In this document: one piece after another, positions 1,716-59,669 of the stretch | Numbering within the stretch: the stretch's first letter is position 1 | Layout: each line of letters begins with the position of its first letter | Assembly (NCBI GenBank): GCA_963678315.1 | Contig: OY782781.1 | Location: forward strand, 1,056,001 to 1,120,000 | DNA: 64,000 bases | From: Candidatus Cloacimonadales bacterium | GTDB lineage: Bacteria > Cloacimonadota > Cloacimonadia > Cloacimonadales > JAFGVF01 | Direction of reading: 5' to 3' | Notes under the pieces: generated by a model | The model's database searches: none | The model's input: only the letters and a program-made list of their open reading frames with translations | Told to the model about the DNA's origin: nothing | Position numbers and translations under genes: made by a program

Positions 1716-1840
1716 ACTGGGAACGCTCAGCTGCTAGCTGGCAAAGAGAAGTTAGCAATTACTGGGATCGCCAGCCTCCGCGCTGGCTTCACTTAGAACC
1801 TAGTGATAAGTGAATTGTAGAGACGAACGGCCGTTCGTCT
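1716..1840 (+). repeat. BIME-like mosaic: two ACTGGGA(A/T)CGC REP hairpins, a TTCACTTA/TAAGTGAA hairpin and a GTAG-AGACGAAC palindrome
   Basis: Same module order as at 23250-25250, where the group II intron interrupts it. Confidence 0.85.
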
Positions 1841-23097: not shown

Positions 23098-23181
23098 GCC
23101 TATAGCACCCTTACTAGCCACCTTGAAAAATTGGCTTTTTTTCAAGGAGGCAAGTAAGGACGGAGTTAGACATGAGGAGTT

Positions 23182-23281
23182 ACTGGGAACGCTTTGCCTT
23201 GAGTCTGGCTGCTGCCGGATAGCTGGCTAATAGTGGGAACGCACAGCCCCTAGCTGGCAAAGAGAAGTTAGCAGAAACTGG
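23182..23281 (+). repeat. REP cluster (ACTGGGAACGC family); last copy split by the intron
   Basis: Two REP variants, then ACTGG directly abutting the intron 3' end. Confidence 0.8.
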
Positions 23282-25175
23282 ATAGGGGTAGGGGTGCTAT
23301 CATTACTGACACCCCTCCCTCCGAACCGTACGTGCGGTTTTCCCGCATACGGCTCTCCAGATAATAATTTACTCTCTATGTAGAGATTGACATAATTGAC
23401 GGTGGGTTTCGGTTAGAGAGAGAAGCCCAGCGTCTTCAAAGATTTTGTTTGGGTATCTGATATTATCTCTACCTGTTGTAGCTATTCCTTTCCGTTTTTC
23501 AAATTTCTTAAGAATACTTCTTAATCGCCGTCGTATCCAACCATCTAAACTTGGAAAAGTACTTTTATAACAATGTTTATAATATTCAAACCAACCCCGA
23601 ATTATACGGTTTATTCGTTTGATTATTTCTTTTAAGCTTTTCCCATTTGTTCTTCTAGTATGTTTTCTTATACTATCCTTGAATTTCTTTTCGCTCTTAC
23701 GTTTAGGAAACTTTCAGAAAATCTTTATTTTCTCATAGTTCTTAGATTTAACAAACCTATAACCTAAAAAGCCTATCTCATCTTGCATACTATCAAGAAT
23801 TTTAGTCTTTGTAGGATGAAGAATTAACTCAGCTTTTTCCGTCCATTGCTTTACTATTTCAAGAGCTTCTTCTGATTCTTTCTGGCTTCTACACATGATA
23901 ATAAAATCATCAGCATATCTTACCATTTGATAGTATTTGCTACTCATTAACCAGTCGAATTTGTTCAAGTAGATGTTTGCTAACAGTGGACTTAATACTG
24001 CACCTTGTGGTGTTCCTTTTTCGGGAATCCATGTATCTAGCCCATTAAATATACTTTGATTTAGAAATTTCTCAATCAATTCTAATACCCGACTATCAGA
24101 TATTTCTTCTTTTACTAAATCCATTAATTTAGACTTAGGTATTGTATCAAAATATCCTTTTAAATCTGCATCAACTACGTATCGATAGCCTCGGTTAAGG
24201 TTATTATACACTATTCTAAGTGCATCTTTGCAACTTCTTTTAGGTCTAAAACCAAAACTGTTATCTGAAAACTTTATTTCAAATATTGGTTCGATTACAT
24301 TTCTTATTGCTGTTTGAACAATTCTGTCCTCAACTGTTGGAATACCTAAAGGTCGTTTCTCCTTACTTCCAGGTTTATCAATCATTACCCTTTTAATTGC
24401 ATTTGGCTCATATTCCTGCATTTCTAAGCGTTTAGCTAAGCCTTGCAGCCTTTGTTCAAGATGTTTCTCATAGTGAGAAATATTCATCTTATCAACTCCA
24501 GCACTACCTTTATTAGCTTTTACTCTTTTCCATGCAGATAACAGATTAGCTTTTGAATAAACTTTATCTATTAAACTAAACCATTTGCCACCTTTGACTC
24601 CCCTTTGGAGAGCTGTCAACATTTTGTCTGTCCAGACAGATGATTCTGTCCACTCCCATTCTAATCTTAGTTGTGAGTTTTCTTCTTGTTCTTGTTTAGT
24701 CTCTTTTGACACTGTCGAACATTTTTCTTTCATCTGTTTCTCCTTTCAAAATTTTATTATCCTGTTCCCCTTCGCTACTCTTAGGTTATGTTGTCCTAAG
24801 TATCATCACTACTATGAGAACTCTGACTCCTGAATATATCTCTAAACCTATATTCAGGTCTCATAGCTTACCTCTAACTAACTTCTTACCATTCCATCTC
24901 CTACCACATCTAAAGTCCTGATATAACTTTATCACATCATTCAGTTTATCAGGTGTATGATAAAACTCTTTATCATCATCAGTTTTCGCCCTGCGATCGG
25001 AGGCTCAACACTATTAGCTGCCGAAACGAGTTCACTAATGTTACGGACTGGTCTTTCATTTCCTGTTACTCCCCACCTAACCTCACGGTTACGCAGTTAC
25101 ATTCAATTACAAATCTCTGATGTAAGATTTGGTTAGGACTTTCACCTAACAGATAGTTAGATATCACTATCGTAC
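23282..25175 (-). mobile_element. Group II intron (1,894 bp)
   Basis: 5' end GTACGATAGTG...GGTGAAAGTCC; domain V GAGCCGTATGCGGGAAAACCGCACGTACGGTTC; domain VI ending CCCCTAT; excision restores ACTGG|GAACGCCAGCTGCTAGCTGGC. Confidence 0.92.
23369..24733 (-). pseudogene. ltrA: Group II intron reverse transcriptase/maturase with an in-frame TGA at 23714-23716
   Basis: RT motifs (NKGSAGVD, RPLGIPT, GTPQG, YADD). The same frame continues after the TGA with maturase domain X (IRGWFEYY...LDGWIRRRLR) to TAA at 23369. Confidence 0.88.
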
Positions 25176-25731
25176 GAACGCCAGCTGCTAGCTGGCTTCA
25201 CTTAGAACATAGTGCTAAGTGAATTTGTAGAGACGAACGGACGTTTGTTTAAATTAAAAAAGATGGTAGATAATTGAGCTCCATTTTATCACCCATGGTT
25301 AAAACCATGGGCTCTTTATTGATTTACCCTTACAGGGTATAAATACCTTTTACTGGAAGAAAGAAGGAACGCGGACACTCCGAATTTGATGAAATATATG
25401 GAGTCAAATGAAGGTTGGTCCGCTTTGAAAGATATTTTCTCGATGGAAATAGCTTTTAAAATTAATCTTACATCTTTAATAAATAGGATTCTAACCTTTC
25501 GAACATCCAGTTAGGATTAAACATTATGTCGTCCCTTCGGGACTCAATTCATTTATATTATTCTACATGGGGTACAAGACTCAGTCAAAGCCTGACACGG
25601 CCCTGGCTTAATATATGACTTCCTTTCAGGACTAATACAAACATCGAATTTGAAAGCTAGAAGCTTGAGTACCCAGATGCTGATGGGGTGTAAGCACCAC
25701 TGATAGCTTGAACAAAGTTCATGCTTAGGCA
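25176..25731. repeat. Repeat mosaic: REP remainder, GTAG palindrome, and solo end modules of both IS200-like TnpA families
   Basis: CCCATGGTTAAAACCATGGG (about 25292; tnpA1-type) and TTATGTCGTCCCTTCGGGAC...ACATGGGGTACAAGACTCAGTCAAAGCCTGACACGGCCCTGGCTTA (about 25524-25635; tnpA2-type). Confidence 0.8.
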
Positions 25732-47525: not shown

Positions 47526-49040
47526 CCATGATTGAAATCATGGGCTTGGGCTACTACACCCCGATGAGGTAAAATGTATAATTGGATAATAGATTAATGG
47601 GATGATTTTATCCTTTTTCTATCCCGAAGGGATTAATTGTCCAAAGCCTAGCTTTTCAAAGCTAGGTTAAATGAATCCCCTCACCAGCATAGTCCTGAAA
47701 GGACTTCAAATGCCTTCTTTTAATCATTATGAAGAGATTAAGTCCCTTCAGGACTACAAATCTATCGGTGTTCTTTTACCCATGATTAAAATCATGGGCT
47801 TGGGCTCTACACCCCGATGAGGTAAAATGTATAATTGGATAATAGATTAATGGGATGATTTTATCCTTTGTTATCCCGAAGGGATTAATTGTCCAAAGCC
47901 TAGCTTTTCAAAGCTAGGTTAAATGAATCTCCTCACCAGCATAGTCCTGAAAGGACTTCAAATGCCTTCTTTTAATCATTATGAAGAGATTAAGTCCCTT
48001 CAGGACTACAAATCTATCGGTGTTCGTTTACCCATGATTAAAATCATGGGCTTGGGCTCTACACCCCGATGAGGTAAAATGTATAATTGGATAATAGATT
48101 AATGGGATGATTTTATCCTTTGTTATCCCGAAGGGATTAATTGTCCAAAGCCTAGCTTTTCAAAGCTAGGTTAAATGAATGCCCTCACCAGCATAGCCTG
48201 AAAGGACTTTTATGACATTTTAATCCCATATATATTTTGGATTATAAGGTATTTTATATTGATTCAAAAATTTAGTAAGTTCATTTTTAAAATCTGTTCT
48301 TTTATGATGTTCTTTCTGATTGCTAATATACTCAACAACTAAACTTACATCCTGTGGCTTGATTGAAAATGCTCCATAACCACTTTGCCAATTAAAATGA
48401 TAGTTCAATGTAAAAGTAACATTGACCCATTTTGATGTTGAGCCTTTCAAACGCTTCATGAAATCTGATAATGAATAATTTTTAGATAGTTCACATAAAA
48501 TATGAATATGGTCTGTGAAACCACCAATTTTGATTAGTTTTGAATCTAAAGATTTAATAATTCTACCTATATATTTATAGAGCTGTTCTTCAATCTCTGG
48601 TGTAATTGTATTTAATCGGTTCTTAGTACTAAACACAATATGTCGATAGTTTTTTACTAGTGATTGCCCCATAACCACTCCTTATATCTTTTAATGAACT
48701 CATGTAATATAATATATAATCGTAACTATTGTCAAATCATAAATAATTTTATTTTAGGAAAAAGTCCCTTCAGGACTACAAATCTATCGGTGTTCTTTTA
48801 CCCATGATTAAAATCATGGGCTTTGGATATTGTACCCCTTTGGGGTAAGATGAACATTTGATTACACACAAATAAATTCAATCTTTATTATCCTCGTTGG
48901 GGTTAAAATGAACAATTGGGTAATGTATAAACAGATTGATTGATTTACCTTTTTCTATCCCGAAGGGATTAATTGTCCAAAGCCTAGCTTTTCAAAGCTA
49001 GGTTAAATGAATCCCCTCACCAGCATAGTCCTGAAAGGAC
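47526..49040. repeat. Array of about 253-bp units built from two mutually inverted three-hairpin modules (A and B), enclosing tnpA1
   Basis: CCATGATT recurs at 47526, 47780 and 48032 (periods 254 and 252), and again upstream of tnpA; module B ATCCCGAAGGGAT...GCCTAGCTTTTCAAAGCTAGG...CCTGAAAGGAC occurs four times. Confidence 0.92.
48220..48672 (-). CDS. tnpA: IS200/IS605-family Y1 HUH transposase (tnpA1)
   Basis: HIVFSTKNR, DHIH (HUH), WQSGYGAF, YISNQKEHH; AGGAG RBS; TTGACA at 48735-48730. Confidence 0.92.
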   Translation of the reverse strand: MGQSLVKNYRHIVFSTKNRLNTITPEIEEQLYKYIGRIIKSLDSKLIKIGGFTDHIHILCELSKNYSLSDFMKRLKGSTSKWVNVTFTLNYHFNWQSGYGAFSIKPQDVSLVVEYISNQKEHHKRTDFKNELTKFLNQYKIPYNPKYIWD

Positions 49041-51161: not shown

Positions 51162-51614
51162 ATGGGGCAATCGTTAGTAGTATCTTATTTCCACTTTGTA
51201 TTTAGTACAAAAAATAGGCACAACTCTATTAATGCAGATTTAGAACTTGAGCTTTATCCATACATAATCTCAATTACAAAAGAGCTAAAGTCGGATGTAA
51301 TAGCAATCGGTGGTTATTCTAACCATATACATATACTATGTCAATTATCAAAAAATATTTCAGTTTCCGAATATATCAGAAAGATTAAATCAAACACATC
51401 AAACTGGATTAACAAGAAAGATTTCCTACGATATCGTTTTAAATGGCAGACGGGTTATGGTGCTTTTACTGTACGTCCTTATGATCTAGATGTGATAATT
51501 AAATATATACATAATCAAAAAAAACATCATAAGAATATAAGTTTTGAAGATGAATTGATGAGCTTTGTTAAAAGCTACAAAATAGACTATGATGAACGTT
51601 ATATTTGGGAATAA
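51162..51614 (+). CDS. tnpA: IS200/IS605-family Y1 HUH transposase (tnpA2)
   Basis: HFVFSTKNR, NHIH, WQTGYGAF, YIHNQKKHH; AGGAGG RBS; TTGACA at 51112. Confidence 0.92.
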   Translation: MGQSLVVSYFHFVFSTKNRHNSINADLELELYPYIISITKELKSDVIAIGGYSNHIHILCQLSKNISVSEYIRKIKSNTSNWINKKDFLRYRFKWQTGYGAFTVRPYDLDVIIKYIHNQKKHHKNISFEDELMSFVKSYKIDYDERYIWE

Positions 51615-53893: not shown

Positions 53894-54161
53894 TATAATC
53901 CTCACTGACTTGATAATTCAGCTTTGTTGTAAGCATCTTTTAGTCAAGAAATATTGAATGAAAAATCCTCAAAAGAACATTGAACACATGTTGAAAACAT
54001 CTGCTGAACTCACAAGATTTCAACATTAAACCTAGTGCATTATTTGGGTTGAAAGCCTTTTTTTAGAAGGATAATATACTTCAGCCTTAATAGCCTCCTT
54101 GAAAAAGTGGCCTTTTTTTAAGGTGGGGCATAGGCAAGAAGGGAGTTAGGAGTGAGGACAA

Positions 54162-54238: not shown

Positions 54239-54303
54239 AACACTTTTTCATTGACAAAAAACAAAAACCATTCCCTATTATATAAATGACAATGGGAGGA
54301 CAA

Positions 54304-54825
54304 ATGCATAAGTTGAAAGGTATGTTTGATAGAGGGTATTTACCACACTATGATTTTGATCATTTATATCAATTTATTACTTATAGGTTATATGATTCTG
54401 TTCCAAAAGATGTAATTGCTTCTTGGAAAGACGAATTGATAAATAATGATAAACTAACGGATATAGAAAGAAGAATAGTTTTAGAAAGAAAAATTCATAA
54501 ATATGAGGATGCTGGACATGGATGTTGTTATTTAAGATTGCCTAAAGTAAATCAAATTGTAGAAGAAAATCTATTATTTCATAATGGTAAAAAATATGAT
54601 ATGATTGAATATAAAATAATGCCAAACCATGTTCATGTTCTGATCAGAGTAATTGAAAATAAAAGCTTGTCAACAATTGTTCATTCTTGGAAATCATACA
54701 CTTCTAAAGAAATCAATAAATTATTAAATCGTAGTGGACAGGTGTGGATGAGAGAGTATTATGATAGATATATTAGAAATCAACAGCATTTTGCAAAAGT
54801 AATTGAGTATATAAGGAATAATTAG
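54304..54825 (+). CDS. REP-associated tyrosine transposase-like HUH nuclease (RAYT1)
   Basis: YLPH, QFITYRLYDS, MPNHVH, HSWKS, WMREYYDRYIRN, EYIRNN; GGAGG RBS before ATG 54304. Confidence 0.88.
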   Translation: MHKLKGMFDRGYLPHYDFDHLYQFITYRLYDSVPKDVIASWKDELINNDKLTDIERRIVLERKIHKYEDAGHGCCYLRLPKVNQIVEENLLFHNGKKYDMIEYKIMPNHVHVLIRVIENKSLSTIVHSWKSYTSKEINKLLNRSGQVWMREYYDRYIRNQQHFAKVIEYIRNN

Positions 54826-59147: not shown

Positions 59148-59669
59148 CTAATTATTCCTAATATACTCAATTGTTCTAGCAAAGTGTTCTTCATTCCTAA
59201 TAAATCTATCATAGTATTCTCTCATCCAAATCTTACCTTCAATGTTCAAAAACTTCTTTATTCTATTTGCTGAATACGATTTCCATGAGTGGACTATTGA
59301 AGATAAGCTATAGCCAATATAAACTTGTATCAAGACATGTACATGATTAGGCATTATCTTGTATTCTATCAAATCATACTTCTTGTAATTATAAAAATTT
59401 AGAACATCAACCATTAATTGCTTTACCTTAGAGATTCTAAGTATACATGCCCCATACCCCATATCCTCATATTTATGAATTCTTCTTTCTAAGATTATAC
59501 GAGTGCTTTTGTCATCTATCTTTGAATCTCTAGCTAATTCTTCCTTCCATATTTGAATAACTTCAGCTGGAACAGAATCATATAATCTAAATGTAATGAA
59601 TTGACATTTTCCATCAACATCAACATGAGGAAGATAACGCCTGTCGAAGACACCTTTAATCTTGTTCAT
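59148..59669 (-). CDS. REP-associated tyrosine transposase-like HUH nuclease (RAYT2)
   Basis: Paralogue of RAYT1: YLPH, QFITFRLYDS, MPNHVH, WMREYYDRFIRN, EYIRNN. Confidence 0.88.
   Translation of the reverse strand: MNKIKGVFDRRYLPHVDVDGKCQFITFRLYDSVPAEVIQIWKEELARDSKIDDKSTRIILERRIHKYEDMGYGACILRISKVKQLMVDVLNFYNYKKYDLIEYKIMPNHVHVLIQVYIGYSLSSIVHSWKSYSANRIKKFLNIEGKIWMREYYDRFIRNEEHFARTIEYIRNN

Follow-up and report, generated by a model that had tools for sequence, protein, structure and literature searches.

A group II intron with an AGC-type domain V at REP hairpins of a Candidatus Cloacimonadales bacterium

A stretch of 64,000 nucleotides from a Candidatus Cloacimonadales bacterium (assembly GCA_963678315.1, contig OY782781.1, forward-strand positions 1,056,001 to 1,120,000; hereafter the window, in whose own numbering positions are given unless a contig is named) contains a complete group II intron, which is inserted directly behind a hairpin belonging to a family of repetitive extragenic palindromic (REP) repeats. 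The source genome (G000) is a single contig of 2.99 Mb with 32.8% G+C. In our opinion, it is quite probable that this element is a retromobile intron of a lineage beside canonical class C (IIC), that it selects its targets in the IIC style, by a DNA hairpin together with a short guide match, and that an in-frame UGA codon of its reverse transcriptase (RT) gene is read through.

An earlier note on this DNA had described the precise homing of a group II intron into a REP hairpin, and this description is borne out by a match to Rfam RF00029, by both junctions and by a second copy at the same point. The RF00029 match (domains V-VI) runs from 23357 to 23282 on the minus strand, i.e., over the last 76 nt of the intron, and reaches 62.7 bits (E 5.8e-10), the gathering score of the model being 40 bits; the intron's 5' end is GUACG at 25175. 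The features of the insertion site and of the 3' part of the ribozyme are as follows, a caret marking the splice junction here and below.

23282..25175, minus strand: complete group II intron of 1894 nt, 5' GUACG ... CUAU 3', its ends fixed by two copies and by an intron-free paralogous REP.
25180..25196, minus strand: REP hairpin in the 5' exon, GCCAGC (25196-25191), loop UAGCA, GCUGGC (25185-25180), read directly.
1761..1787, plus strand: intron-free paralogous REP, ACTGG^GATCGCCAGCCTCCGCGCTGGC, whose GCGAUC would pair 6/6 with the exon-binding site EBS1 described below.
23323..23355, minus strand: domain V, with an AGC triad, a 4-bp distal stem and the 5-nt loop GAAAA (GCGG-GAAAA-CCGC).
23282..23322, minus strand: domain VI, with a putative bulged branch-site A at 23289, placed by eye 7 nt before the 3' splice site.

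The second copy (G000, C1:2505193-2507086) differs from that of the window at 11 of 1894 positions (99.4% identity). In intron orientation, the junctions read GCCAGC UAGCA GCUGGC GUUC^intron^CCAGU in the window and GCCAGC ACGGAG GCUGGC GUUC^intron^CCAGU in the second copy, which thus has the same stem with another loop, while its outer flanks are unlike those of the window copy. Because two copies with different outer flanks share their junctions, both ends of the intron are fixed exactly. On the plus strand, the flanks of the window copy are ...ACTGG (23277-23281)^intron^GAACGCCAGCTGCTAGCTGGC (25176-25196), and the insertion point lies inside the conserved GCGTTC^CCAGT head of the REP-like repeat. 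Direct reading also agrees with the reported distance of 4 nt, in intron orientation, between the GCCAGC/GCTGGC stem and the splice site. The restored flanks and the empty mosaic at 1716-1840 that the same note had pointed out are real: the mosaic shares the flanking modules aaagagaagttagca... and ...cttcacttagaac with the intron site, and its REP at 1761-1787 can also be written ACTGG^GATCGCCAGC...GCTGGC. The intron is not present in the orthologous gene neighborhood of any of the five related genomes examined; a clean orthologous empty site was not found in these five, in which the region downstream of the orthologous gene differs and is free of REPs.

The next line of evidence comes from the relatives of the intron and the hairpins in front of them. 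A DNA search covering 41 genomes (the source genome and 40 related ones) gave matches in 17. Full-length copies are present in G005 (2), G001 (1) and G027 (6), and near-full copies in G013 (6 among the matches listed) and G006. In all 11 full-length copies of the source genome, G005, G001 and G027, a GC-rich stem precedes the intron by 2-4 nt, yet the stem sequences are unrelated to each other, as exemplified by CGCGGG..CCCGCG ACC^ and GGGCAGAC..GUCUGCCC CUA^. A GC-rich stem is likewise located 3-7 nt before the intron in 5/5 copies read in G013 and in the one copy of G006, so that within the bacterial order insertion is hairpin-adjacent in 17 of 17 copies. Beyond the order, a scan of one genome per species produced 602 pattern matches, 591 of which encode a relative; the best 80, with 46-94% identity, come from Planctomycetota, Acidobacteriota, Verrucomicrobiota, Pseudomonadota, Myxococcota and other phyla. 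A profile of the 5' part of the intron located the 5' end in 34 of the best 80 loci, and removal of duplicates and of loci with less than 250 nt upstream left 31 distinct flanks. In 21 of these 31 flanks from other phyla, a perfect stem of 6 bp or more ends 0-5 nt ahead of the intron, compared with a count of 17 among 124 control windows situated 60-180 nt upstream; it should be noted that this strict rule overlooks stems with bulges. The flanks of homologous introns had been set as the test that could refute insertion behind hairpins. The homologues, too, lie just behind hairpins, and the refutation failed.

Exon recognition was deduced from covariation. An alignment of domains I-III of 19 sequences folds into the expected architecture, with 100 predicted pairs, 74 of which have compensatory changes, and it places the following elements (EBS and IBS denote exon-binding and intron-binding sites).

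24993..24998, minus strand: EBS1, GAUCGC, in the loop of hairpin 25009-24982, identified by covariation of alignment column 184.
25176..25181, minus strand: IBS1, GCGUUC, formed by the final six bases of the 5' exon, the first two of which are also the last two of the stem.
24904, minus strand: EBS3, a G; column 343 is complementary to exon position +1 in 16 of 17 rows, the 17th being G-U.
23277..23281, minus strand: start of the 3' exon, CCAGU, with IBS3 the C at 23281; exon position +1 covaries with column 343.
25118..25123, minus strand: alpha, ACAUCA, in the Ib loop; it pairs with alpha' and covaries with it in most rows.
24934..24939, minus strand: alpha', UGAUGU, in the terminal loop of hairpin 24952-24918, overlapping the GAAUG at 24942-24938.

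Column 184 forms at least 4 contiguous pairs with the lineage's own 5' exon end in 13 of 19 lineages. Counted over 29 distinct intron-exon pairs (nine loci without a pattern-detected hairpin being left out), EBS1 matches exon positions -1 to -6 at a mean of 4.59 of 6 positions, compared with 2.86 after shuffling and a maximum of 3.66 among 2000 shuffles; in 17 of the 29, the contiguous pairing from -1 extends over 5 or 6 pairs. In the window, EBS1 GAUCGC and IBS1 GCGUUC pair at all but one of their six positions, namely -3, where U faces U. A search for EBS2, i.e., for complementarity to exon positions -5 to -20, found no intron column that pairs in more than 5 of 19 rows, as against 13 of 19 for EBS1. 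EBS1 differs among close copies, being GAGCGC in L015 of G001, GAUUGC in L014 of G005, and GAUCGC in the window, and none of these forms a perfect match with its present site. Since the G001 EBS1 GAGCGC would pair fully with GCGUUC through one G-U, the U of the window EBS1 may be a later change. The folding of domain I proposed earlier as a check has therefore placed EBS1 and EBS3 by covariation, with a different outcome for the loop that had been suggested as EBS1: GAAUG (24942-24938) lies in the alpha' loop, whose kissing pair with the Ib loop covaries.

The repeat that carries the insertion point is abundant. The 11-mer GCGTTCCCAGT occurs 142 times in the genome, compared with 0.24 occurrences expected from base composition; the variant GCGATCCCAGT occurs 54 times. 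Two sites of the repeat family are occupied, in agreement with the proposal of a multicopy REP as the target. Together, GCG[AT]TCCCAGT has 196 exact copies, and 236 copies lie within one mismatch. The motif comes after several kinds of GC-rich units, often in arrays, and the family has the properties by which REPs are recognized, namely a short palindromic repeat, high copy number and intergenic arrays. One REP unit, GCCGGCTAGCAGCCGAGCGTTCCCAGTATTA, also forms head-to-tail tandem arrays with a 31-nt period (G000:C1:545059-545214 and elsewhere), which is unusual for classical REPs. Among nine matches to Y1 transposases in the genome, three genes are flanked by copies of the motif, and at two of them, both in the window, the copies on the two sides have opposite orientation.

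54286..54825, plus strand: RAYT-like Y1 transposase gene, NF047646 62.3 bits (cut-off 80) compared with 32.6 for the IS200 model, with inverted REP arrays on its flanks.
59148..59669, minus strand: second RAYT-like gene, NF047646 61.4 bits (cut-off 80), above the IS200 model, with inverted REP arrays.

The association with RAYT genes claimed for the repeat therefore stands insofar as inverted arrays of the REP family surround RAYT-like genes, whereas the genes themselves score below the NCBIfam cut-off; "RAYT-associated REP" is a fair description with this qualification. Two IS200-type Y1 transposase genes, at 48220-48678 (minus strand) and 51162-51614 (plus strand), score 63-64 bits with NF033573, above its cut-off, and lie less than 10 kb from the two RAYT-like genes; a 12-kb part of the window thus holds four Y1 genes, and further ones lie immediately outside the window. 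A long hairpin at 23100-23160 with runs of T and A (ccttactagccaccttgaaaaa...tttttcaaggaggcaagtaagg) follows a 767-aa gene; near-identical copies of it lie beside the second intron copy and at 54090-54140, and by its appearance it is a terminator-like component of the REP mosaic.

The assignment of the intron to a class is less straightforward than its targeting. According to Toor 2006 (PMC1702495), IIC introns are distinguished by their small size, CGC instead of AGC, an AGGAA bulge, an EBS1 pairing of 3-4 bp, a distal stem of domain V that falls two pairs short of that in IIA and IIB, the lack of EBS2, an EBS3 like that of IIB, and a 5'-exon stem-loop. The window intron shares the 5'-exon stem-loop, the lack of EBS2 and the IIB-like EBS3. 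It differs in domain V: AGC, which the earlier note had stated for the window, and a 5-nt loop are found in 77/77 family loci with a domain V match (77 of the best 80), whereas CGC is found in 5/5 canonical IIC controls. These controls are introns of annotated plasmids, three from Firmicutes that lie behind terminators and two in class 1 integron cassettes that lie antisense behind attC (L134, L136). The distal stem of 4 bp with a 5-nt loop contrasts with the parsed ACG-GAAC-CGU (3 bp and a 4-nt loop) of the canonical loci L132, L133 and L137, and EBS1 pairing in the family commonly extends over 5-6 bp. In the epsilon' region, the window reads ...CAGGAAAUG... and the family consensus is GGAGG, compared with the 11-nt bulge with AGGAA of the hallmark. 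The domain I model for IIC introns, RF02001, which holds UCUGAAGGAA, gives 130-147 bits on 5/5 canonical controls and 34.4 bits on a family member from a Cupriavidus plasmid (L131), and it has no match in the window intron even at E up to 10.

In a tree of RT proteins with 29 rows, 16 of them from the family and five canonical IIC, with no curated class references included, the family clade (support 96/94) and the canonical IIC clade (100/99) are separate from each other; the deeper forks are weak, and several outgroups are on long branches. The nearest solved RTs in the PDB are those of IIC introns (7uim_D, 214 bits; 6ar1_A, 210 bits), followed by the CL-type 6me0_C (143 bits) and LtrA (141 bits), and the layout of the EBS1 hairpin is the one seen in IIC introns of integrons, whose ACAA pairs with UUGU. 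The tree answers the earlier call for an RT phylogeny to the extent that the family stands apart from canonical IIC, within the limits of its 29 rows and its lack of curated class references. "Non-IIC", as the intron had been called, is too strong with regard to exon recognition and the EBS1 hairpin, which are IIC-like, and to the nearest solved RTs, which are those of IIC introns. In view of its AGC, the lack of a RF02001 match and the RT clade, the window intron is better described as a member of a separate, widespread lineage beside canonical class C, a label that is provisional because references for classes E and F, g1-g4 and divergent class C were outside the comparison.

The protein encoded by the intron deserves separate consideration.

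23369..24733, minus strand: RT/maturase open reading frame of 454 codons in domain IV, RVT_1 E 1.5e-41 and GIIM E 1.9e-19.
23714..23716, minus strand: in-frame TGA, codon 340, a Trp codon in intact homologs (76-81% identity).

Pfam matches no families in this reading frame besides RVT_1 and GIIM, and the protein is therefore taken to lack an endonuclease domain. The general NCBIfam model TIGR04416, which is the only one matching, gives 414 bits on a protein 80% identical to the window RT (P0001). The RT carries a conserved 52-aa N-terminal extension before RT0, which is special to the intron family, as solved IIC RTs align only from residue 53 on. The TGA occupies the same codon in 5/5 copies of G000, G005 and G001 (the window copy at 23714-23716 on the minus strand, G000:C1:2505193-2507086, L014, L015 and L031), which diverge by approximately 12% in DNA and occupy five different sites, and three database proteins (99, 94 and 82% identity) stop at this residue. 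When G000 is compared with G005, the 114 codons that follow the TGA contain 35 synonymous and 10 non-synonymous changes (dN/dS, the ratio of non-synonymous to synonymous rates, 0.044), and the 339 codons before it contain 75 and 24 (dN/dS 0.057). Because dN/dS stays low downstream, the comparison suggests low-level readthrough of the UGA, probably as Trp, that would still yield the maturase domain. Reassignment of TGA in the host is ruled out: TGA is a genuine, if rare, stop, which ends 90 of 1221 long reading frames with a median of 3 more codons to the next stop. A frameshift that bypasses the TGA is unneeded, since the downstream frame is the 0 frame, and inspection by eye did not reveal an in-frame ATG, GTG or TTG close after the TGA.

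Taken together, these features outline how the element would work. A ribozyme and an endonuclease-less RT/maturase would form a retromobile unit whose choice of target, as in IIC introns, would begin with a DNA stem-loop and continue with a short guide match: EBS1 GAUCGC would pair with the last 4-7 exon bases and the G of EBS3 with the first base of the 3' exon, with no EBS2 involved. The RAYT-associated REP family would supply dozens of such sites (a hairpin followed by GCG[A/U]UC^CCAGU), two of which are occupied. The analogy of IIC introns and others that lack an endonuclease suggests that reverse splicing would proceed into transiently single-stranded DNA, and that cDNA synthesis would be primed by nascent strands at replication forks. 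Readthrough of the in-frame UGA, with Trp as the probable residue, would allow the maturase domain to be made nonetheless.

Several observations weigh against this account. EBS1 has the central U-U mismatch at both occupied sites, while 35 sites with the same hairpin and a perfectly matching GCGATC are empty, as are 11 more hairpin sites with GCGTTC; a mismatched guide and empty perfect sites are hardly what one would expect of an actively homing element. In several lineages, 2-4 nt of IBS1 fall within the base of the hairpin, so that guide pairing and the stem, whose own reading by the intron is presumed, compete. The strict stem criterion fails in 10 of the 31 distant flanks, copy 2 holds a further stop at codon 403, and the comparison of classes included no E, F, g1-g4 or "divergent class C" references, so that the class label is not fixed. 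Finally, cumulative GC skew places the origin near 0.73 Mb and the terminus near 2.0 Mb, and in both copies the sense strand lies on the leading-strand template, an orientation other than the one reported to be preferred by endonuclease-less introns; as n=2, this observation carries no weight.

Some of the same observations are what would be expected if the introns were dead relics, the TGA having killed the protein and copy 2 having arisen by DNA recombination between REP mosaics instead of by retromobility. The TGA is present in both copies and is joined by the second stop in copy 2, the guide is mismatched at both sites while the 35 perfect ones stay empty, and the 5' flanks of the two copies share approximately 50 nt of REP modules. 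We regard this explanation as unlikely, in view of the strong purifying selection downstream of the TGA over a dS of 0.5-0.85, of the occurrence of the TGA-bearing intron at five different sites in three genomes, and of ribozyme parts that appear intact. It is similarly improbable that the element is an ordinary IIC intron in which the AGC triad is a trivial variant within the class. The hairpin-adjacent insertion, the lack of EBS2, an EBS3 as in IIB and IIC, the small endonuclease-less RT and the IIC nature of the nearest solved RTs are all in keeping with such an assignment, and the family might correspond to D.p.I1, Al.or.I2 and Pe.th.I1, class C reading frames that Toro & Martinez-Abarca 2013 (PMC3552965) placed outside the main class C node. 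Against it are the three Toor 2006 hallmarks (PMC1702495) in which the intron departs from the class, namely the CGC triad, the short distal stem and the 3-4 bp EBS1, as well as the absence of a RF02001 match and the supported separation of the RT clade, for which the tree holds only five canonical IIC rows.

A different question is whether the hairpin matters at all. REPs being palindromic, homing by sequence alone (EBS1 and EBS3 acting on the 11-mer GCG[A/T]TCCCAGT) would bring the intron behind a hairpin incidentally. An EBS1 of 6 nt that reaches into the stem, and an 11-mer that is the most conserved part of the repeat with its 196 exact copies, are compatible with this possibility. Relatives elsewhere, however, lie behind hairpins of unrelated sequence, some of which are not obviously REPs, and both copies fall into the GCCAGC..GCTGGC subclass (48 of the 196 copies, unoccupied, plus the two occupied ones), for which the chance of approximately 6% lends weak support. 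We therefore consider homing by sequence alone very unlikely, and retromobility with combined reading of hairpin and guide remains our preferred account.

According to two papers, reports of upstream stem-loops are confined to IIC introns (Sonbol & Siam 2021, PMC7923331; Gomes et al. 2025, PMC12584367). In a literature search, outside which many subscription papers lie, we found no description of a hairpin-homing lineage of AGC type and none of readthrough in a bacterial intron RT; searches on REP-targeting or on a new IIC-like class yielded nothing beyond the papers cited here. Tentatively, it can be proposed that the lineage found in Cloacimonadota, Planctomycetota, Acidobacteriota, Verrucomicrobiota, Pseudomonadota and other phyla is as yet unnamed and combines a domain V of IIB/E/F type (AGC, 5-nt loop) with hairpin recognition of IIC type, and, jointly with this, that one of its sub-lineages may limit the output of its own protein by way of a leaky UGA, which it keeps in the place of a Trp codon where the RT domain is joined to the maturase domain.

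If true, hairpin targeting either predates class C or had more than one origin, and the REP/RAYT repeats are landing sites dedicated to this use. One selfish element, the intron, is seen here to exploit the repeats of another, REP/RAYT, as safe sites. A second well-populated lineage with the same targeting and another catalytic core could show which parts of the RNA and the protein read the DNA hairpin, and it bears on the question of which intron form is ancestral. A conserved in-frame UGA with selection behind it would offer a testable case of readthrough control of a retroelement protein in a bacterium with the standard code.

The source genome also harbors another group II intron family, unrelated to the first, at C1:982618-984573 (plus strand) and 2874725-2876678 (minus strand) (L011, L012). 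Its two copies are 99.5% identical, domain I matches Rfam group-II-D1D4-4, the RT is split over two frames, and the duplicated stretch starts approximately 47 nt before a GUGCG motif; the related genome G009 has at least 7 matches to this family.

Among known systems, the IIC introns of B.h.I1 type, which insert at terminator stem-loops (PMC1702495), resemble the window intron in their insertion a few bases past a DNA stem-loop at intergenic sites, in the use of EBS1 and EBS3 without EBS2, in the small endonuclease-less RT and in the layout of the EBS1 hairpin. They are distinguished from it by CGC and a shorter distal stem in domain V, where the window intron has AGC, a 4-bp distal stem and a 5-nt loop, and by an EBS1 of 3-4 bp, where the family commonly has 5-6 bp. 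The window intron has no RF02001 match, the spacer that separates the site from the stem in the family measures mostly 1-4 nt and overlaps IBS1, and the RT of the family has the 52-aa N-terminal extension and a clade of its own.

The IIC-attC introns of integrons (Leon & Roy; Quiroga et al., cited in PMC4424553) offer the closest parallel in the choice of landing site, which is a multicopy recombination hairpin of another mobile system, and they share the antisense orientation to neighboring genes. Here, the target belongs to the REP/RAYT system, whereas the attC introns (L134, L136) have CGC, an EBS1 ACAA that pairs with UUGU and an 11-nt spacer. Introns of classes E and F (Nagy et al. 2013, PMC3753933) have in common with the window intron a domain V loop of 5 nt, an alpha' that caps a separate stem-loop, a ribozyme of approximately 530 nt and the absence of an endonuclease domain. 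According to that description, they have a covarying EBS2-IBS2 pairing and are not described as hairpin-associated, in contrast to the window intron, which lacks EBS2. The 3' splice site of Ge.ur.I1-1 is AC, and Pe.th.I2 and Ge.ur.I1-1 have six nt separating the branch site from the 3' end (PMC3753933), compared with the 3' end CUAU and the 7-nt tail, placed by eye, of the window intron. Lastly, a group II intron at REP elements was reported in P. putida KT2440 (Tobes & Pareja 2006, PMC1525189). In that report, 2 of 9 copies are REP-associated with no precise rule, whereas both copies described here are inserted at one and the same nucleotide of the repeat.

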